From Mustelus asterias (Eukaryota), in contig NC_135804.1 in NCBI RefSeq assembly GCF_964213995.1, positions 69,316,001-69,380,000 of the forward strand: a stretch of DNA of 64,000 nt, read 5' to 3'. The position numbers and the translations under genes were made by a program. The notes below the pieces were generated by a model. That model did no database searches, had not been told where the DNA came from, and saw nothing but the letters and a program-made list of their open reading frames with translations. Positions 43,261 through 60,322 of this stretch are shown in pieces; the first letter of the stretch is position 1; the number at the start of each line of letters is the position of its first letter.

Positions 43261-44207
43261 TGATGGGGTCGGGGGCCGGGGGGGGGGGGGGGGGGGGCGG
43301 GGGGGGGGGGGTGATTAGGCTGATAGAAAACACGCAATCATGGTTTGAGAACACTAACACAAATCTGACTTAAGAATGAATGATCTTAGACAAGAGAAAG
43401 CGCTGACAAGAGGCTGTCACTTGAAGAGAGATCTAACTGAATAACAAGTATTTCCCATTTACAACATGCGTTTTGAATATATAAAGTGGATGTAGTTTGT
43501 TCTCAGAAAATATCTTGTGAAACTTCAGCGAACAGCAAGGTACAACAGGGCTTGATGGATGAGGCAGTAGACAGATCCTGCATTTTCGAGGAAAATGGTG
43601 TTACTGCATGCAGCCACTTTATTAGCAGTTGTCGGGAAGAAAACGTCTACCAATGCCAGTTTGATGAATAGAACTATACAGCTCAAAACACAGGTGCAAA
43701 GCAGACATAAGTATTTTCTCAGGGTCGGACGAGTGCCACGTGTGTTTGAGTCTTTGGGAATCATTCTGCCATTTCACTGTCCAGCATCTCGTGCTGCTGA
43801 ACAACCGAGGGAGGTAACCTCCTGAATTAAGGACCAACAAGATCCCAGGAGGTCAGGCTGTTAGTTGTTATTGGCTGGAGTCGGAGACAGGGATGGCTAT
43901 TGACTGATTTGTTGGAATGTTTACTGGATTATGCTTACGGGAAAGGTGGGAAATCTGATTTTGAAAATGTATAATTGCCCTCACGGAGGCATTGCTCTTC
44001 AGAGTTATATTGGGCTGCCCGCATTCTCTACCTGGAGTGCTGGGCTTCTTTATATCATTCTCCATTCGATCGGTTGGTTGATAAAGTCACGTCTTAGAAT
44101 CAGTACATTGAGTTCGTGAGTCTCTATGTTTGGCTTAATTTGTAGCAATGCACAGCCTCTAAAGAAAACCTCATCAATTATTTGGCGCTGCCCGCCGGCT
44201 GCCGTCA
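43261..44207 (+). repeat. ERV 5' LTR (3' boundary 44176 or 44207)
   Basis: About 600 bp align by eye with 46723-47367, and 43940-43970 matches 52761-52792; ends in CATCA or CGTCA before the PBS. Confidence 0.75.
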
Positions 44208-46722: not shown

Positions 46723-47367
46723 TGATGTAAGTGGGCTTAATTCGGCTAATAAAAAAACACATGGTTTGAGAACACTAACACCATACTGACTTAAGAGTGA
46801 ATGATCTTGGACGAGAGAAAGCGCTGACAAGAGACTGTCAATTAAAGAGAGACCCAACTGAATGACAAATATCTCCCATTTAAAACATGTATTTTTAAAT
46901 TTATAAAGTGGATGCAATTTGCTTTTAGTATACATTTTGTGAAACTTCACCAACAGCAAGATACAGCAGTGCTTGGTGGGATGAGGCAGCAAGACAGTGC
47001 TTGCATTCTGTCGGACAATGGTTTTACTGAATGTGGCGACTTTATCAGCAGTTGTTAGGAACAAAATGGCTACAAATGCCCGCTTTATGAATAGAAACTA
47101 TTCAGCTCAAAACTGATAACATAGGTGCAAGGCAGACATAAGGATTTTCTCAGGGTCGGAAGAGTGTCACGTGGGTTAGAGTCTGTGGGACTCATTCTCT
47201 ATTTCACTACCCAGGGTCCTGTGTTGCTGGGTAACTGAGCGAGGTCACATCCGAAATTAAGGACAAATGAGATCCCTTGAGTTCAGTGTGTAAATTGTTA
47301 TTGACTGGAGTTGGTGATACGGATGATTGGTGACTGATTTGTGTTAATGTTCACTGGATTATGCCAC
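46723..47367 (+). repeat. ERV 3' LTR, left part (resumes at 52761-52792)
   Basis: Begins TG two bases after the PPT; homologous to the 5' LTR. Confidence 0.8.
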
Positions 47368-47580
47368 GATGGCACAGTGGTTAGCATTGCTGCCTCACAG
47401 CGCCAGGGACCGGGGTTCAATTCCACACTGTCTGTGTGGCGTTTGCACGGTCTTCGTTCGTTTCCTCCGGGTGCTCCAGTTTCCTCCCACACTCTGACAG
47501 ACGTGCTGGTCAGGTGCATTGACCCGAACAGCGCCGGAATGTGGCGACACGGGGAATTTCACGGTCACTTCATTGCAGTG

Positions 47581-47910
47581 TGTGGTGAACCATCATTGGT
47601 TCCCACCAGGTAGTACTGAGCCAGGGTCTGGCCAGTACTATGAGTCTGTATATATGTTACTGTTGGGTGAGGGTTGGGCTGTTCTACATGTTACTGTTGG
47701 GGTTAGGGTTGGGCTGTTCTACCTGTAATATAATTATTATGGTACATCCCAGTCGGGCTCCGCCTCCTGGGAGAGGTATAAAGGTCACTGCTCTGTCTGG
47801 GACCCTTTAGTCTGGGATCGTGTATTATATATGGTAGCTCTATTGTAGTAGTCAATAAAAGCCTTTATTCCCTCGAGCATCTCTAGCCTCGTGAGTTATA
47901 TCGCGCATCA
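47581..47910 (+). repeat. Gypsy 5' LTR
   Basis: TG...CA, 330 bp; about a dozen differences from the 3' LTR by manual comparison. Confidence 0.95.
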
Positions 47911-47971
47911 ATTTTATTGACGACTAATTGAACTCTCGTCGTTGAAAAAAAAAGAAAACGACACAGAGAGC

Positions 47972-49078
47972 ATGGAGCAAATGCTTAAACCCGAACGGCT
48001 TACACTGGACCCACGTGCGGCGGGCGCCTCAAACACCTTCGACCACTGGTTGAAATGTTTTCAGGATTACTTCGAAGCCTCCGCAGCGGTCACCACAGAT
48101 GACGACAGACGCCGGATCCTCCACGCGAGGGTAAGCGACGCTGTATATTTAGCGATCCATGCGGCCACCGACTTCAAAGCGGCCCTCGAGCTTCTAAAGA
48201 AGCGCTACATTAAACCGCCAAACGAGCTGCATGCTCGATATTTCTTAGCCACTCGACGACGGCATCCCAGCGAAACGAAGGAACAGTACGCGTGCGAGCT
48301 CCTACAGCTAGCCAGGGGCTGTAACTGCAAAGCAGTGTCGGCAGACCAGAACATGAACGACCTCGCTCGAGATGCGTTTGTGGCGGGAATCGGATCGTCA
48401 TTTATCCGACTTCGGCTGTTGGAGCAAGGTAATCTCAATCTCACTAAGTCTATAGAGCTAGCGGATGCGCTAGAAACGGCCTCCAAAAGCCTGGCGATGC
48501 ATCCCACCGACCACGTGGAGACAGCGTGGCAGGGGTAGTCACAGACCCCACTTCATCCAGCGGGACCGAAAAGCTGCGTGATTGCGTTCCCACCCTCGGG
48601 CCTGACGACAGCAGCAGCTCCTGGCGGCCCATGGTGTTACTTCTGTGGGGGAGTGAAGCACACTCGGCAGCGATGTCCCGCTAAAGCGGTGTTGTGCTCC
48701 GAATGCGGCAAGAAGGGGCATTATTCGAAGGTATGTCGATCCAAACTTTCATCCAGGAACAGCAGTGCGGCGTGTGACTCCCCGGAGCCGGTTTCCTCAT
48801 CGTCGGCATCGTCAAGGGTTTCTTCCACGTGCGAGGCCAGGACGTCGCCATTCCAGATGACGGAGTCGCAAGAGACGCGCGACCACCAGGGGTCGCTGAT
48901 TTTGGCGCCACGCCCACGTGTGACCTATGGGAGCAGCCATTTTGGTCGGCACCGACCGCGAATGACCAGCAGGTGTCGTCATCATCCATCTCAGCTGCCT
49001 GCAGTGGCGCCCACGAACCAACGGTGGTGTCGATTATCCTGGACCAGGCAAAGCCTCACATACTCGACAAGTCCATGA
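47972..49078 (+). pseudogene. gag: Gypsy gag with zinc knuckles and one in-frame stop at 48536-48538
   Basis: MEQMLKPERLTLDP..; ORFs 47942-48538 and 48578-49078 share a frame; CYFCGGVKHTRQRC and CSECGKKGHYSKVC. Confidence 0.85.
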
Positions 49079-52000
49079 TGGACATACAGGTAAACAAATG
49101 CATGATTTATTGTCTGTTTGACAGCGGGAGCACGGAAAGCTTTATTCACCCAGACGCCATGAAGCGGTGTGGCCTCCAGATCCAGCCTGTCAAGCAGACA
49201 ATTTCGATGGCGTCAAGGTCTCGGTCTGTCACTGTGCTAGGGAGTTGCGTGGTAAATCTAACGGTGCAGGGCACGGTATACGAGAGCTTCAAGCTCCTGG
49301 TGTTACCGCACCTTTGCGCGCCAGTACTCCTCGGACTAAATTTCATGGTCCACTTGGAGAGTGTAACCCTACAGTACGGTGGGCCGCTCCCTCCGCTTTC
49401 AGTGGGAGACTCGCAGCCTCTAAATTGCCCAATGCGCTCCACCTGTAGCCTCTCGACGCTCAAGATTACCACACCCTCCTTATTCCAGAATCTTGTGCCA
49501 GGCTGCAAGCCCATCGCGACTAAGAGTAGGCGTTACAGCGCTGAGGATCGGATCTTCATTCAATCTGAGGTTCAACGGCTCCTCAAGGAAGGGATCATAC
49601 AACCTAGCGCTAGTCCTTGGAGAGCGCAGGTCATGGTGGTCAAGAGTGCGAACAAACCCCGGATGGTCATAGACTATCGTCAGACCATTAACAGATACAC
49701 GCAGCTGGATGCGTATCCCCTCCCACGCATATTTGGCATGGTCAACCAGATTACGCAGTACCGGGTGTTCTCCACCATCGACCTAAAGTCTGCCTACCAC
49801 CAGCTCCCCATTCGCCCAGAGGACCGACAATACACGGCTTTTGAGGCGGATGGTCACTTGTACCATTTTCTAAGGGTTCCCTTTGGTGTCACGAATGGGG
49901 TCTCGGTCTTCCAGCGTGCTATGGACCGAATGGTGGACCATAACGGACGGCGGGCTACCTTCCCGTACCTGGATAACGTCACCATCTGTGGCCACGACCA
50001 GCAGGACCACGATACCAATCTTCTTAGATTCCTATGCACTGCATCTCGCCTGAATCTGACCTACAACAGGGAGAAGTGTGTATTTCGCACGCGCCGCCTA
50101 GCTATCCTCGGATACGTGGTGGAAAACGGGGTCATTGGCCCTGATCCAGACCGTATGCGTCCCCTCCTCGAACTTCCCCTGCCCACTAGTGTAAAAGCAC
50201 TGAGAAGATGCTTAGGCTTCTTCTCTTACTATGCACAGTGGGTTCCCAATTACGCGGACAAAGCCCGTCCGCTCATCAAGTCTACCTCTTTTCCCCTGGC
50301 ACCAGAGGCTCGTTTGGCCTTTGAAAAACTAAAAGCCGACATCGCGAAAGTCACGATGCACGCTATCGATGAGTCCATCCCCTTCCAGGTGGAGAGCGAT
50401 GCATCTGATTTCGCCCTGGCCGCCACACTTAACCAGGCAGGCAGGCCCGTCGCCTTTTTCTCTCGCACCCTCCAAGGCCCTGAAATTCGACATTCGGCGG
50501 TGGAAAAGGAGGCCCAGGCCATTGTGGAGGCCATCCGGCATTGGCGCCATTACTTGGCGGGAAAACGGTTCTCCCTGCTCACGGACCAGCGGTCCGTGGC
50601 GTTCATGTTCAATAACACGTTACGGGGCAAGATCAAGAACGATAAGATCTTGAGGTGGAGAATCGAACTCTCCACCTATAATTACGACATCATGTATCGT
50701 CCAGGGAAACTCAACGAGCCCTCGGATGCCCTGTCACGTGGAACATGCGCCAGTATGCAGGAGAATCGATTGCAGGCTCTCCACAATGACCTCTCCCATC
50801 CAGGGGTCACTCGGCTCTACCACTTCATAAAAGCCCGGAATCTACCCTACTCGGTGGAGGATGTCAGGTCCATAACCAGAAGCTGCCGGGTATGCGCGGA
50901 ATGCCAACCGCACTTTTACCGACCTGACAGGGCACAACTCATTAAGGCCACTCGTCCCTTCGAAAGACTGAGTGTGGATTTTAAGGGGCCCCTTCCCTCG
51001 ACAGATCGGAATGTGTACTTCCTCAATGTGGTTGATGAGTACTCACGATTCCCTTTTGTCATTCCCTGGGGTGGCACGGTAGCACAGTGGTTAGCACTAC
51101 TGCTTCACAGCTCCAGGGTCCCGGGTTCGATTCCCGGCTCGGGTCACTGTCTGTGTGGAGTTTGCACATTCTCCTCGTGTCTGCGTGGGTTTCCTCCGGG
51201 TGCTCCGGTTTCCTCCCACAGTCCAAAGATGTGCGGGTTAGGTTGATTGGCCAGGTTAAAAAATTGCCCCTTAGAGTCCTGGGATGTGTAGGTTAGAGGG
51301 ATTAGCGGGTAAAATATGTGGGGGTAGGGCCTGGGTGGGATTGTGGTCGGTGCAGACTCGATGGGCCGAATGGCCTCCTTCTGCACTGTAGGGTTTCTAT
51401 GATTCTATGTTCTGATACGACCGCTGCCACTGTTATCAAGGCATTTCGTGATCTTTTCACCCTGTTCGGTTACCCCTGTTACATCCACAGTGATAGGGGC
51501 TCGTCGTTCATGAGCGATGACTTGAGGCAATACCTGCTCTCATATGGGATTGCTTCTAGTAGAACCACGAGCTACAACCCTAGGGGTAACGGACAGGTGG
51601 AACGTGAGAATGCTACAGTCTGGAAGGCTGTCTTACTGGCGTTGAAGTCAAAAGGCCTTCCAGTCTCCCGTTGGCAAGAGGTGCTCCCTGATGCGCTCCA
51701 CTCCATACGCTCACTCCTGTGTACGGCAACCAACGCTACTCCCCATGAGAGACTGTTTTCATTCCCTCAGAAGTCTTCCTCTGGGACCTCATTACCATCT
51801 TGGTTGACGTACTCAGGACCTGTCCTCCTGCGGCGACACGTTAGGACCCGCAAGTCCGACCCTTTGGTTGAACAGGTCCATCTCCTCCACGCCAACCCTC
51901 AGTATGCCTATGTGGCATACCCTGACGGGCGAGAGGACACGGTCGCGATTCGAGACCTGGCGCCTGCAGGGGGCTTGGAAACCCCTGTCGCTCCCATACC

Positions 52001-52307
52001 TCCTGTTAGAAACCCCCCAACTATTGTTTCCCCTCCTGACACGGCGCGGGCAGCATCGGGACCATCACTTAACCCTTTTACTCCCGTGTCCAGCTTGCCT
52101 GAGTCCAGGAGATGGTCGCCACTTCAAGGCGTGTCCGAGTTCAGCGGATTGTCACCACCTCGGGGTCTACCGGCCCGTGATACATTGGAGGAGCCATTGG
52201 ACACCGCCTTGGGGATAACGCCACCGCGAGTGCCTACACCGGTGTCATCGCCGGTGTTGAGGAGGCCACAACGACGGTGCCGTCCCCCAGACCGTCTGAA
52301 CTTATAG
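48829..52307 (+). pseudogene. pol: Gypsy pol (protease, RT, RNase H, integrase) interrupted by a SINE
   Basis: LFDSGS, DLKSAYHQ, VPFGV, YLDN, ESDASD, HPGV..CRVC, VVDEYSRF, HSDRG and GNGQVER; removing 51069-51409 restores FPFVIP-CSDTTA. Confidence 0.93.
51069..51409 (+). mobile_element. HE1-type V-SINE inserted in the Gypsy integrase
   Basis: Full-length SINE between ATTCCCTG and TTCTGATACG; the tail ATTCTATG resembles the target ATTCCCTG. Confidence 0.95.
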
Positions 52308-52374
52308 ACTGATGACCAATTGTTCTGTGTTTTTTTTGTACTCCGCCGGCCTTAGTCTTCAAAGGAGGGGTGAA

Positions 52375-52705
52375 CGTGGTGAACCATCGTTGGTTCCCAC
52401 CAGGTAGTACTGAGCCAGGGTCTGGCCAGTACTATGAATCTGTATATATGTTACTGTTGGGGTTAGGGTTGGGCTGTTCTACATGTGACTGTTGGGGTTA
52501 GGGTTGGGCTGTTCTACCTGTAATATAGTTATTATGGTACATCCCAGTCGGGCTCGGCCTCCTGGGAGAGGTATAAAGGTCACTGCTCTATCTGGGATCC
52601 TTTAGTCTGGGATCGTGTATTATATATGGCAGCTCTATTGTAGTAGTCAATAAAAACCTTTATTTCCTCGAGCATCTCTAGCCTCGTGAGTTATATCGCG
52701 CATCA
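52375..52705 (+). repeat. Gypsy 3' LTR
   Basis: 331 bp, follows the PPT; first base is C instead of T. Confidence 0.95.
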
Positions 52706-54133
52706 CAGTGTTAATGTAAGCCTTACTTGTGACTAATAAATAAACTTTACTTTACTTTCCAGGAAAGGCGGGAAAGTTGATTTTGAAAATGTTTGGCCAA
52801 TTCATCTAACCTGCACATATTTTGACTGGGAAGAAACACGAGCACGTGGAGGAACGCATGCAGACACGGGGGACGGGGCGGGGGGGGGGGGGGGGCGGGG
52901 TAAGGAGTGGGGGGAGGCGGTGTGGAGGGGTGGATTGTGCAAACTCCAGAGAGTCACCCAAAGCCGGAATTGAAGCCGGGTCCCTGGAGTTGCGGGGGGA
53001 TATTCCTTGTCCTAAAGCTGTCGCCAAGGAGGATTTGAAAATTACTTTCGATGCCCCACGTATCTCCTCACCTGCCTCCCTCAACAACCTGTGATGCATA
53101 TCATCCATGCCTGCAGTTGTGCTCACTTTTAAGGCCGTTAAGCATGCTAGTACCTTCTTGCTTTATGTTAATTTTCTTTAAAATATCATTGTCTTCCACT
53201 CTGATGCCTACAACTACGTCCTCTTTTTCCATTGTGAAGATCGTTGCAATGTTATTGAGGACTGTATCCACAACTTCCGGGTCACCCCACAGATTGCCCA
53301 TATGGCCTCTAATTGACACTATGGTTTTCCTCAAATTATTTGATACTTCATTTATTTAAAGTATATTTAGATGACCTGCATTCGAGTTCCTGGTTTGGAG
53401 TCTGCCTGAATCTGCCAATTTGGGAGTGGTTGTGCCCTGCTATTGATTGACATATTCATGGAAGCACAAATTCACGATAAATATCTCTAAAATAGAAAAT
53501 ATGGCATATTAGCGAATACTAATATGAAATATTTCCTGTCAGTTGTCACTGAGGTTAGCAACGAAGGGTTTTCCTACAAAATTGAGGTTACTTTGGAAAT
53601 CTTGAAAACATATTTTTCCCGTCATAATCTCATCTCTTTAATATCTTTGATTCTCTCTCTTTTTCCGCACCTCTCCCTTGTTCAATTTTAGGTTTCATAT
53701 TTCTTTTTTTTATGTGCAGACGTTCACGTTGAATTACAGCTCCAAATTAAATGATAGGTCCGCGTGCGGATTGGTCAACCTGCTCGTTAAATTTATATTG
53801 CACAGTAAAATACGGATGTTGACATTTGAAAGACAGCCACACAGTTTAACATCTGACTGCCTTAACGTTGGTCGTACAGGCTCTGCAACCTCAACGACTT
53901 TAACTTTGAAAACAGAATCGGATCAGTTTTCATTCCATTTTCCGACGTACAAATTGATAATGAAAACTAAACTGGAAGTTCTGTTTGTCATTTCCAAAGT
54001 GGTATGCCAGAATTAGCAGATAAACATAATCTAAGATTTTGAGCACATAAATAAAGATACAGAAAACGAACATTTTTTTAACGTAACAAAATGAATTCAC
54101 TGCTTACGTTGTGTTTAAAACATGTAAACATAC

Positions 54134-54789: not shown

Positions 54790-57085
54790 CTGTGATTTGA
54801 TTCGATATATTGTTGTCACATATATTAGTATACAGTGAAAAGTATTGTTTCTTGCGCACTATACAGACAATGAATACCATTCATTGAGAAGGAAACGTGA
54901 GAGGGCATGGGATCCAAGGGGCTGCTGCCCTGTGGATCCAGAACTGGCTTGCCCAAAGGAGGCAGAGAGAGGGTATAGATGGGTCTTTTTCTAAATGGAG
55001 GTGGGTCACCAGTGGTGTGCCCCAGGGATCTGTTCTGGGACCCTTGCTGTTTGTCATTTTCATAAATGACCTGGATGAGGGAGTGGAGGGATGGGTTGGT
55101 AAGTTTGCCGACGACACGAAGGTTGGTGGGGTTGTGGATAATCTGGAGGGATGTGAGAATTTACAAAGGGACATAGATAGGATGCAAGACTGGGCGGAGA
55201 AGTGGCAGATGGATTTCAACCCAGATAAATGCGTAGTGGTCCATTTTGGCAGGTCAAATGGGATGAAGGAGTACAATATAAAGGGAAAGACTCTTCGTAC
55301 TGTAGAAGATCAGAAGGACGTTGAGGTCCGGGTCCATAGGACTCTAAAATCGGCCCCGCAGGTGGAAGAGGTGGTTAAGAAGGCGTATGGTGTGCTGGCC
55401 TTTATCAATCGAGGGACAGAGTTTAGGAGTCCGGGGATAACGATGCAGCTATGTAAGACCCTCGTCAGACCCCACTTGGAGTACTGTGCATTACAGGAAG
55501 GATGTGGAAAAGATTGAAAGGGTGCAGAGGAGATTGACAAGGATGTTGCCTGGATTGAGTGGCATGCCATATGAGGATAGGCTGAGGGAGCTCGGTCTTT
55601 TCTCCTTGGAGAGACGTAGGATGAGAGGAGACCTAATAGAGGTATATAAGATGTTGAGAGGCATCTGTTGGGTGGACTCTCAGAGGCTTTTTCCCAGGGT
55701 GGAAATGGCTGCTACGAGAGGACACAGGTTTAAGATGCTGGGGTTTAGGTTCAGGGGAAATGTTGGGGGGAGGCTTTTCACACAAGAGGATGGTGGGCGG
55801 GTGGAATCGGCTGCCGTCAGTGGTGGTGGAGACAAACTCAATAGGGTCTTTTAAGAGACTCCTGGATGAGTACATGGGACGTAATAGGATGGAGGGTTAT
55901 CGGTCGGCCTAGAAGCTAGGGATATGTTCGGCACAACTTGTGGGGCCGAACGGCCGGTTTTGTGCTGTAGTTTTTCTCTGTTTCTATGTTTCTAAGGAAA
56001 GGAGAGAATGCAGAATGTAGTGTTACAGGCATAGCTGCGGGTGCAGAGAAAGATCAACTTAATGCGAGGTAGGTCCATTCAAAAGTCTGATGGTAGCAGG
56101 GAAAAAAACTGTTCTTGAGTCGGTTGGTACGTTATTTCGGACTTTGGTATCTGTTTCCCGACAGAAGAAGGTGAAAGAGAGTATGTCGGGGGTCCGTGGG
56201 ATCATTGATTATGCTAACTGCTTCTCCGAGGCAGCAGAAAGTGTAGACAGTGCCCATGGACGGGAGGCTGGTTTGATTGGTAGACTGGGCTTCGTTCACA
56301 TCCCTTTGTAGTTTCTTGCGGTCTTGGGCAGAGCAGGAGCCATACCAAGCTGCGATACAATCAGAAATAATGTTTTCTAAGGTGCATCTGTAGATGTTGG
56401 TGAGAGTTGTTGCGGACGTGACAAATTTTCTTTGTCTGCTGAGAAAGTGGAGGCGTTGTTGGGCTTTCCCATCTATCGCGTCCGCATGGAGGAACCAGGA
56501 TAGATTGTTGATGATCTGGACACCTAAAAACGTGAGGCTCTCCACTATTTCTACTTTGTCTCCTTTGATGCAGACAGGGGCATGCCCTCCACTACGCTTT
56601 CTGAAGCTGATGACTATCTCTTTCGATTTGTTGACATTGAGGGAGAGATTATTGTGGTCACCCAGTTCACCAGAATATCTAACTCTTTCCTGCACAGTGT
56701 CGCGTCATTAATGAGATACAGCCCATAACCGTGGTGTCATCAGCAAACTTGAAAACCGAGTTGGATGGGAATTTGTCCATACAGTCAAAGGTGAATAAGG
56801 AATATAGTAAGGGGCTGATGCCATAGCCTTGCGGGAGCACCGATGTTGAGGATGATCACGGAGGAGGTGTTATTGCCTATCCTTACTGACTGCGGTCTGT
56901 GGTTTAAGAAGTCAAGGATCCAGTCGCAGACAATGGAGCCGAGCCCCAGGCCATGAAGTTTAGAGATGAACCTCGGAGGAACAATCGTGTTAAAGGCTGA
57001 GCTGCAGTCTATGAATAAGAGTCTGACATAGATGTCTTTGTTTTCTAGGTGGTCTCGGGTTGAGCATAGGGCCAGGGAGATTTTT
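54790..57085 (-). mobile_element. Rex1/Babar LINE fragment (RT and 3' end), split by CR1
   Basis: YVRLLFIDCSSAFNTIVP (56785-57117); NNLSLNVNKSKE..YRCTLENIISDCIAAWYGSC (56132-56695). Confidence 0.9.
54896..55993 (+). mobile_element. 5'-truncated CR1 of the same family as 5000-8476 and 58220-60322
   Basis: GHGIQGAAALWIQNWLAQRRQR..KFADD..; 7-bp TSD AAGGAAA (54889-54895, 55994-56000). Confidence 0.95.
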
Positions 57086-58219: not shown

Positions 58220-60322
58220 TCATAGAAACATAGAAAACTACAGCGCAAAACAGGCCCTTCGGCCCCACAAGTTGTGCCGAACATATCCCTACCTGGTAGG
58301 CCTACCTATAACCCTCCATCCTATTAAGTCCCATGTACTCATCCAGGAGTCTCTTAAAAGACCCTATTGAGTTTGCCTCCACCACCACTGACGGCAGCCA
58401 ATTCCACTCGCCCACCACCCTCTGTGTGAAATACTTCCATCGAACCTTTCCCCTGTACCTACACCCCAGCAAGTTAAACCTGTGTCCTCTCGTAGCAGCC
58501 ATTCCCACCTTGGGAAAATGCCACTGAGAGTCCACCCGACCTATGCCTCTCAACATCTTATATGCCTCTATTAGGTCTCCTCTCATCCTACGTCTCTCCA
58601 AGGAGAAAAGACCGAGCTCCCTCAGCCTATCCTCATATGGCATGCCACTCAATCCAGGCAACATCCTTGTCAATCTCCTCTGCACCCTTTCAATCTTTTC
58701 CACATCCTTCCTGTAATGAGGCGACCAGAACTGAGCACAGTACTCCAAGTGGGGTCTGACGGGGGTCTGATATAGCTGCATCGTTATCCCCGGACTCCTA
58801 AACTCAACCCCTCGATTGATAAAGGCCAGCACACCATTCGCCTTCTTAACCACCTCCTCCACCTGCGGAGCCGATTTTAGAGTCCTATGGACCCGGACCT
58901 CAACGTCCTTCGAATCCTCTACCGTACTAAGAGTCTTTCCCTTTATATTGTACTCCTTCATCCCATTTGACCTGCCAAAATGGACCACTTCGCATTCATC
59001 TGGGTTGAAGTCCATCTGCCACTTCTCCGCCCAGTCTTGCATCCTATCTATGTCCCTCTGTAACTTCTGACATCCCTCCAGACTATCCACAACCCCACCA
59101 GCCTTCGTGTCGTCGGCAAACTTACTAACCCATCCCTCCACTTCCTCATCCAGGCCATTTATGAAAATGACAAACAGCAAGGGTCCCAGAACAGATCCCT
59201 GGGGCACACCACTGGTGACCGACCTCCAATTAGAAAAAGACCCATCTATGCCCACTCTCTGCCTCCTTTGGGCAAGCCAGTTGTGGATCCACAGGGCAGC
59301 AGCCCCTTGGATCCCATGCCCTCTCACTTTTTCGAGAAGCCTTGCATGGGGACCTTATCCAATGCCTTGCTAAAATCCATATAAACCACCTCTACCGCTT
59401 TCCCTTCGTCAATGTGTTTTGTTACATTTTCGAAGAACTCCACCAGGCTCGTAAGGCATGTTCTGCCACTGACAAAGCCATGCTGAGTATTCTTGAGCAT
59501 AGTAAACCTCTCTAAATGCTCATAAATCTTATCCCTCAGGATCTTCTCCATCAGCTTACAAACCACTGAGTTTAGACTCACCGGTCGGTAATTTCCTGGG
59601 CTATCCCTATTCCCCTTCTTGAAAATAGGAACCACATCTGCAATCCTGCAATCCTCCCGCACCTCTCCCGTCTCCATCGATGACGCAAAGATCATCGCCA
59701 GAGGCTCTGCAATCTCTTCCCTCGCCTCCCACTAGTAACCTGGGGTACATCCCATCCGGACCCGGCAACTTACCTATCTTGATGCCATTCAAAGATTTCA
59801 GCACAACCTCTTTGTTAAAGTCCACATACTCAATCTTTTTGGTCCACCGCAAGCCCACAGTACATCCACCCATGTCCTTCTCCTCTGTGAAAACCGAGGC
59901 AACATACTCATTGAGCACCTCTGCCATTTAGACTGGTAGCGTACTGATTTTCCCACCTTGACCTTTTATAGGTCCTATTCCTTCACGGCTCATCCTTTTA
60001 CTCTTCACATATTTATAGAACGCCTTCGGGTTTTCCTTAATTCTACTTGCCAAGGCCTTCTCGTGACCCCTTCTGGTTCTCCTAATTTCCTTCTTCAATC
60101 CCTTCCGACAAGTCATATACTCATCTAGATCCCTATCTTCGCCAAGCTCTCTGAACGTTTCGTACGCTTTCCTTTTCTTCTCGACTAGGTCCCGCACAGC
60201 TTTCGTGCACCCCGTTTCCTTAACCTACCAACTCCTCCCTGTCTGCTCGGACCATTGTCCCTGGACAGACATTCCTTGAAGAACTGCCACCTCTCTTCAG
60301 TAGATTTCCCCGAGAATACCTC
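58220..60322 (-). mobile_element. 5'-truncated CR1 (linker, RT, tail)
   Basis: ORFs 59928-60197, 59607-59927, 59324-59695 and 58302-59327; near-identical to 7130-8476 and 54896-55993. Confidence 0.95.

Follow-up and report, generated by a model that had tools for sequence, protein, structure and literature searches.

How does a retrotransposon prime its reverse transcription when it offers no binding site to a transfer RNA (tRNA)? The question is raised by a Ty3/Gypsy element in a 64,000-nucleotide (nt) stretch of the Mustelus asterias genome (contig NC_135804.1, positions 69,316,001 to 69,380,000, forward strand; hereafter the window, whose own numbering is used throughout). The element spans positions 47581 to 52705 on the + strand and carries the 5-bp target-site duplication CAGTG on both sides. 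A preliminary description of the locus had proposed that it primes itself in the manner of Tf1, which uses the first 11 nt of its own RNA, cut by RNase H (PMC7175516). Published accounts describe self-priming in the Tf1/sushi group and predict it in Tcn1 and in the TAR lineage of copia elements (PMC6317226, PMC10085805, PMC4600332). Here we report that the element in the window is a defective member of a Ty3/Gypsy family that lacks a chromodomain and whose primer site is complementary to its own long terminal repeat (LTR). Judging from sequence comparisons, the clade to which this family belongs very probably primes, in some form, from its own RNA, and the primer is probably a capped fragment of about 52 nt from the 5' end of that RNA, whose last 13 to 16 nt pair with the primer site and which ends in the poly(A) signal. 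On balance, and with more reserve, we lean toward a broader reading, namely, that an animal-wide clade of chromodomain-less Gypsy elements with a natural YxDN active site came to self-priming independently of Tf1/sushi, uses such a primer cut at the poly(A) signal, and left palindromes and mini-elements, inserted by integrase, as fossils that map both primer ends.

A primer site complementary to the element's own LTR

The 5' LTR (47581 to 47910, 330 bp, TG...CA) ends in CA at 47910 and is not followed by the TGG of a tRNA site. Instead, a 1-nt spacer (A 47911) leads to the primer-binding site at 47912 to 47926, which is the reverse complement of the LTR segment at 47846 to 47860 at 14 of 15 positions and has a perfect 10-bp core at 47851 to 47860, just as the preliminary description had stated. 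What that description had missed is that the only AATAAA of the LTR (47854 to 47859) lies inside the paired segment. Such complementarity is rarely met by chance: in dinucleotide shuffles of the LTR, with five offsets allowed, a perfect 10-mer arose in 12 of 20,000 and a match of at least 14/15 in 1 of 3,000. It is also kept across the family, for which the best 40 of 2,950 first-look candidates were scored; 21 of 30 copies pair at 15/15 and the other 9 at 14/15, with the mismatch of the window element common to 4 of the 30. The family is large and young, with 234 exact matches to the junction between LTR and primer site in the genome (reversed control, 0), and an open frame of at least 1,200 amino acids is kept in 4 of 37 copies.

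Pairing and covariation among related families

The relatives comprised 80 metagenome loci, 46 of which had enough flank to be tested; the LTR end could be fixed in 19, the others being without a usable LTR pair (locus L053 had no LTR end, and the repeat pair of L039 was unused). Together with 18 of 20 related loci of the same genome, which had an LTR pair, and the window element itself, this gave 38 LTR-defined elements. All 38 pair with their own LTR, at 10 to 13 of the first 13 positions, in one register and behind a fixed 1-nt spacer (A in 37, G in one), and two further loci on genome contigs pair at 13/13. Because the register had been picked to maximize pairing, a tRNA-site control was needed: other Gypsy lineages of this genome, which carry TGG sites, reached only 7 to 10 of 13, under a looser search.

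For covariation, elements were grouped by eye into 19 families, each represented by its first-listed copy. At positions 1 to 13, 242 of 247 pairs are Watson-Crick, compared to 167.9 ± 6.6 (maximum, 201; 0 of 20,000 reaching the observed value) when partners are swapped between families. The corresponding figures are 111 of 114 versus a partner-swap mean of 62.8 for positions 4 to 9 and 95 of 114 versus 53.0 for positions 11 to 16, and compensatory changes between primer site and LTR segment occur across the families. Positions 1 to 3 and 10 are invariant, the latter being C-G in all 19. Pairing is complete to position 13 in every family and extends to positions 14, 15, and 16 in 14, 14, and 12 families, respectively, and to positions 17 and 18 in 6 each. 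Positions 12 and 13 pair in 19/19 families with four pair types, which argues for a primer longer than 11 nt; an 11-nt primer, which the conserved positions 9 to 11 had suggested, was rejected since positions 12 and 13 covary.

The paired segment ends 20 to 65 nt ahead of the LTR end and contains a canonical poly(A) hexamer in 14 of the 19 families; of the five without one, two have a hexamer downstream, unpaired. In predicted folds, LTR segment and primer site pair with a mean probability of 0.51 to 0.99. A second helix, starting from the first base after the segment, is enriched (sum, 74 versus 57.0; 11 of 5,000 shuffles), with at least four perfect pairs in 11/19 families, whereas a third helix between U5 and leader is not consistently seen. 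In the window element, a purine-CC motif opens the 50 nt from 47861 to 47910 that hold the rest of the repeat region (R) and U5, and the second helix predicted to stack there on the primer helix is weak in this family, with two perfect pairs.

None of the 38 post-LTR 20-mers has a TGG site, and when 11 sites were compared with 29 distinct tRNA sequences, which covered just 10 anticodon types, the longest complement was 5 to 8 nt. The control in this screen, a TGG-site Gypsy of the same genome (L140), matched the end of tRNA-Thr at 17 of 18 positions. Scans of viral contigs for members of the clade found none.

Position of the clade relative to chromoviruses

The preliminary description had noted that the integrase frame ends RRPQRRCRPPDRLNL with no chromodomain, and a domain scan bore this out. 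Among 120 long homologs with precomputed domain annotations, and again in 15 that were rescanned, neither a chromodomain nor a Tf2-type SH3 was found, while a chromodomain is present in the control L231 and in most rows of the control protein search. A chromovirus of the same genome was sought by chromodomain, Tf2-type SH3, and reverse transcriptase (RT) motif, and none was found; chromovirus controls were drawn from viral contigs and the protein search. One of them, the chromodomain-bearing L231 from a viral contig, has the Tf1-type layout, with a self-complementary primer site 35 nt past a TATA box.

An unrooted tree of RT and RNase H was built from 20 rows chosen from a 40-row tree, itself made from 40 of 58 extracted sequences, in which chromodomain-bearing elements and their close hits stood in for Tf1, sushi, and Ty3 themselves. 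The clade was recovered with 100/100 support and the chromoviruses separately with 99/97, the tRNA-site lineages of the same genome falling in between. Uniting the clade with the fungal and vertebrate chromoviruses was rejected (approximately unbiased [AU] test, P = 0.005). By these sequence comparisons, the clade is not a group of chromoviruses. The earlier suggestion that the element self-primes outside the chromoviruses is thus supported by the covariation across the clade, the absence of a chromodomain, the tree with its AU test, and the LTR-templated genomic copies described below. Cigr-1 is a likely but tentative name for the clade. Among the best rows, the nearest named homologs come from sharks and rays (78 to 83%), followed by cnidarians, a gastropod, a tunicate, flatworms, nematodes, and arthropods.

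The RT of the window element carries YLDN (49966 to 49977) in place of the catalytic motif YxDD. Across 240 homologs, the last position of this motif is N in 169, D in 65, and unread in 6, and both states are spread over the clade. Four members (L160 to L163) lie in bacterial genome bins; two of them, L160 and L161, are contigs of about 4 kb with terminal repeats and are probably eukaryotic contamination or one-LTR circles.

Promoter and predicted start of the RNA

The preliminary description had placed the promoter at TATATAT and the RNA start at 47846 to 47851, with a second TATA-like box at about 47778 as an alternative. The TATATAT does begin at 47826 (47826 to 47832), but it is specific to the family of the window element, where 29 of 30 copies have it, is found in only 1 of the 38 LTR-defined elements, and sits only 20 to 24 nt ahead of the proposed start; it is probably not the promoter. 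The second box is present as TATAAA, although it begins at 47777. This box (TATAAAGG, 47777 to 47784) is found in 30/30 family copies, is kept across related families of the same genome, and is likely the real promoter. In 19 of 22 elements of this genome, TATAAA lies 83 to 95 nt ahead of the end of the paired segment, and in 15 of these 19 an initiator follows 29 to 34 nt past it. The window element has the initiator-like TTAGTCT at 47807 to 47813, whose A 47809, 32 nt past the T of the TATA box, is the predicted cap and the predicted 5' end of the primer. The conserved TATA-initiator pair thus lies 51 to 64 nt ahead of the end of the paired segment, a predicted cap-to-cut distance that is 52 nt in the window element and that speaks against a start at 47846 to 47851. 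From these conserved motifs, transcription likely starts at A 47809, and the promoter proposed earlier is probably wrong.

Fold-back insertions as possible records of priming

In 9 of the 234 exact junctions, the complement continues past position 15, and a DNA search in which the best 40 of 1,355 candidates were scored raised the number of such fold-back copies, in which the primer site continues as an inverted copy of the LTR, to 18 in the window family; with 24 in sister families, there are at least 42. In them, an LTR and the spacer are followed by a second, inverted LTR sequence that starts at 47860 and runs to LTR base 1, which leaves a U3 end on either side. The junction lies at the same base, 47860, in 18/18 window-family fold-backs, and among the 15 whose two ends could be located, 13 are flanked by exact 5-bp target duplications. 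Of eight sister-family fold-backs with both ends located, four have exact duplications, one matches at 4/5, and three continue into the polypurine tract. The arms are diverged, and the copies occur on many chromosomes and in several families.

The two arms of a palindrome mostly share their U3 haplotype: they differ at 47615 and at 47808 in 0/15 each (7.5 each expected from random templates), at 47806 in 1 versus 5.4 expected, and at 47736 in 5 versus 7.4 expected, which points to fold-back of one plus strand. We had taken differing arms as proof of two templates, a view overturned by this haplotype table and an ordinary-element control. In that control (L273 to L312), 33 elements showed 27 LTR differences at four shared non-CpG sites, versus 52 at random, and 27 of 37 ordinary copies checked had exact target duplications. 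Such differences within ordinary elements suggest that plus strands are transferred between molecules or that conversion occurs, and ages estimated from LTRs would come out too high.

Three copies bear on the length of the primer. The inverted arm of L256 carries five linked variants (47825, 47840, 47841, 47848, and 47853) that are common to both arms of L260 and missing from its own left arm, while the private variant 47796C is common to both of its arms. This pattern therefore points to a separate template of which at least 36 nt were copied, with a switch between 47796 and 47825 that brackets 47809. In L319, a mini-element bounded by an exact duplication, the two LTRs enclose nothing but a 52- to 53-nt inverted copy; its end falls on the initiator A, from which it jumps to sequence ahead of the polypurine tract. 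L313 has a 38-nt arm followed by a jump to the U5 end, again with an exact duplication. With a probability of about 0.04, one of the two natural ends, in L319 or L313, would fall by chance no more than 1 nt from the initiator. A further short arm, in L325, proved to be interrupted by a short interspersed nuclear element (SINE) and was dismissed as a stop. These mis-copied insertions suggest a primer of about 50 bases, not the 11 of yeast.

Some fold-backs show further peculiarities. A T-to-C change at 47825 occurs in 6 of 30 tabulated palindrome arms (L243 to L260) plus L259, compared to 0 of 66 ordinary LTRs, and 47826 is changed in two more arms. In both arms of the L259 palindrome, a 35-bp U3 repeat unit is expanded to dozens of copies. 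The left side of L293, L294, L340, and L341 is the inverted 3' half of the element ending in the U5 end, the outer ends of L294 carrying a 5-bp duplication; these four look like products of auto-integration. In L338 (848 to 5524), an entire element in inverted orientation is attached to an LTR at the cut site, and the flanking 5-mers are mutually reverse-complementary rather than a direct duplication.

A model for self-priming and its alternatives

In the proposed mechanism, the RNA would start at A 47809, as the conserved TATA and initiator indicate, and 47846 to 47860 would pair with 47912 to 47926 over a 50-nt loop, as predicted from their complementarity and covariation. By analogy with Tf1, the RNase H of the RT, a domain present in the element with predicted cleavage activity, would cut the RNA between 47860 and 47861, a position fixed by the pairing register and the fold-back junctions. 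The 3' end at 47860 would then prime the minus strand through spacer and U5, and the resulting strong-stop product of 50 nt (47861 to 47910) would transfer to the 3' R between poly(A) signal and tail. The plus strand would normally copy about 13 to 18 nt of the primer and regenerate a primer site matched to the LTR, which would explain the covariation. Occasionally more of the primer may be copied; the second transfer would fail, the plus strand would fold back on its own LTR or jump, and the fold-back product would integrate as the palindrome with two U3 ends that we find in the genome. The pairing may also bring the secondary advantage of masking the 5' poly(A) signal. The reported distance of about 13 bp between the polymerase and RNase H sites of Ty3 (PMC5371799) equals the invariant paired length of 13 bp; such a spacing could determine where the cut falls and also let the plus strand go once about 13 nt of primer have been copied. 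The cDNA of Tf1 keeps a single-stranded copy of the primer site at its 3' end (PMC11042837), which is the kind of end that fold-back needs.

Several observations weigh against this model. No TATA lies within 120 nt in any of the 19 metagenome relatives, and the TATA-initiator layout therefore holds for the fish families only. The conservation of pairing positions 9 to 11 resembles that of a start motif. Besides promoter motifs, the long primer draws on two single copies, L256 and L319; microhomology of 1 nt makes the end of L319 imprecise, L313, whose short arm also has a natural end, stops at 38 nt, L256 could stem from gene conversion, and the 341 loci collected include no ordinary L260-type element. 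Most fold-backs would also arise from a 15-nt primer and are therefore no measure of primer length, for which the informative copies are single cases, with junctions known from the genome assembly alone. The arms of L314, L316, L332, and L327 pass the LTR into polypurine tract and pol, showing that 3'-end templates are used too, and the LTRs of ordinary copies themselves differ at shared variants (27 versus 52 expected). Moreover, the partner-swap null ignores relatedness among families, and the tRNA screen covered 10 anticodon types only, with its half-tRNA part incomplete.

Could the primer be of the Tf1 type after all, with a second start at the paired segment that makes the first 11 to 16 nt of an RNA the primer, while the upstream TATA and initiator drive a different transcript? 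The conserved positions 9 to 11, with C-G at position 10 in 19/19 families and often a resemblance to a start motif, would fit, as would the lack of an upstream TATA in the invertebrate relatives and the alternative starts used by Tf2 (PMC5341516). We nevertheless consider this unlikely, since pairing reaches 13 in all families and 14 to 16 in 12 to 14 of 19 without a sharp edge, since no TATA lies 30 nt ahead of the segment, whereas the chromovirus control has one 35 nt ahead of its site, and since L256 and L319 would require a primer of 36 to 52 nt. The same evidence, together with the promoter 51 to 64 nt upstream, tells against the primer of the first 11 or so nt envisaged in the preliminary description. 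Distinctly improbable is a primer from the 3' R, in which genomic RNA, own or co-packaged, would be cut after the 3' poly(A) signal and prime the minus strand with its 3' end: the arms share their U3 haplotype at 47615 and 47808, which argues against priming in trans, L319 halts at the initiator, a point with no special meaning for a 3' primer, and the 5' copy lies only 50 nt from the site and is predicted to fold with it. These points stand against the coincidence of the cut with the poly(A) signal in 14/19 families, the extension of some inverted arms into polypurine tract and pol, and the bottom strand of the palindrome, which reads U3-R-minus strand, all of which count in favor of a 3' primer.

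HIV-1 hides its 5' poly(A) signal in a hairpin. In the clade, too, pairing might only mask this signal, with priming left to a host RNA or an internal tRNA fragment; the paired segment does hold the only AATAAA of the LTR and a canonical hexamer in 14/19 families, and the tRNA screen was partial (10 anticodon types). Yet 5/19 families have no canonical hexamer in the segment, two of them having an unpaired one downstream, the register is fixed at the primer position, TGG sites are absent from all 38 post-LTR 20-mers, and, from family to family, site and LTR change together, something a host RNA could not track, so that we regard masking alone as very improbable. Finally, the fold-backs could be rearrangements after insertion or assembly errors, in which case self-priming would stand and the evidence on primer length would fall. 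Their junctions are indeed known from the assembly alone, and the LTR differences within ordinary copies (27 versus 52 at random) indicate that conversion may be active, but a base-exact junction in 18/18, exact duplications round the whole palindrome in 13/15, diverged arms, and an occurrence on many chromosomes and in several families leave this explanation hardly any credence.

Comparison with known systems and implications

With a longer, internally pairing primer, the feature of the clade probably works like the self-priming of Tf1. As in Tf1/Tf2 and the other Tf1/sushi chromoviruses (Tj1, Tosmo, and Tcn1), there is no tRNA site, and the primer site placed directly behind the 5' LTR matches a stretch of R in complement. 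For those elements, a multi-helix junction ("pretzel") is predicted (PMC10085805), of which the clade shows the enriched second helix but no consistent third one, and RNase H cleavage is assumed for both. In contrast to those elements, the clade pairs 13 to 16 nt, ending in the poly(A) signal and probably lying 36 nt or more inside the RNA, has neither a chromodomain nor a Tf2-type SH3, and forms a separate RT branch with YxDN in most members. Outside the chromoviruses, self-priming has been inferred from LTR-primer-site complementarity in the TAR/Houba/Osr-1 elements (PMC6317226), but these are Ty1/copia elements of plants, whereas the elements studied here are Ty3/Gypsy elements (protease-RT-RNase H-integrase) of animals. 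The Cigr-1 and MolGy1-16 clades (PMC6238403) resemble ours by description, as compact non-chromovirus Gypsy elements of marine invertebrates; in the searchable text of that paper, neither "PBS" nor "primer binding" occurs. The YxDN motif has a counterpart in the Ty1 RT mutant D211N, which has Asn at the last Asp of the motif and keeps polymerase activity in vitro (PMC2148107). There, the change abolishes transposition unless RNase H suppressors arise, whereas in the clade it is the natural majority state (169/240) and is found in young copies.

In the literature found, which also took in PMC3601003, PMC6934838, and PMC6894440, published self-priming of Gypsy elements is tied to the Tf1/sushi chromoviruses. 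This search, which lay outside the primary Tf1 papers, Repbase, GyDB, and subscription journals, found no report of self-priming in a non-chromovirus animal Gypsy, of a natural YxDN Gypsy RT, or of such fold-backs. If our reading is true, a second, independent, and widespread animal clade would mean that tRNA-free priming arose more than once and that a cap-proximal end is not required, and it would explain why tRNA-based annotators find no primer site in such elements. Fold-back insertions would offer a genomic readout of reverse-transcription intermediates, including cut site, primer length, and template switches, and they create palindromes of 500 to 600 bp in the host. Whether the natural YxDN active site, a change that blocks Ty1 unless its RNase H is altered, is linked to the chemistry of self-priming is now testable.

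Structure of the element and its surroundings

The element has the hallmarks of Ty3/Gypsy: TG...CA LTRs, a target duplication in the range of 4 to 6 bp, a polypurine tract (52361 to 52374), and a pol gene in the order protease, RT, RNase H, integrase; the closest solved relative of its RT is that of Ty3 (E = 3e-51). Its 5' LTR and 3' LTR (52375 to 52705) are identical at 318 of 330 aligned positions, and the CAGTG duplications lie at 47576 to 47580 and 52706 to 52710, the element being lodged within a SINE. Three lesions interrupt the gag-pol region (47972 to 52307; CCHC, protease, RT, RNase H, and integrase): an in-frame stop (48536 to 48538), a frame change ahead of the protease, and a second SINE within the integrase (51069 to 51401, + strand), which is missing from the family copies compared. 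Rfam gave no match over 47300 to 53000 at E ≤ 0.1, and a search of the ESM Atlas with a homologous Gag returned generic Gag clusters only. The SINE that bears the element sits in the second unit of a diverged 3.4-kb tandem duplication (43339 to 43970, 46760 to 47364, and 52757 to 52792). Farther downstream, at 54893 to 55988 and 58221 to 59331, lie two RT fragments of a long interspersed nuclear element, about 93% identical, inverted relative to each other and 2.2 kb apart.
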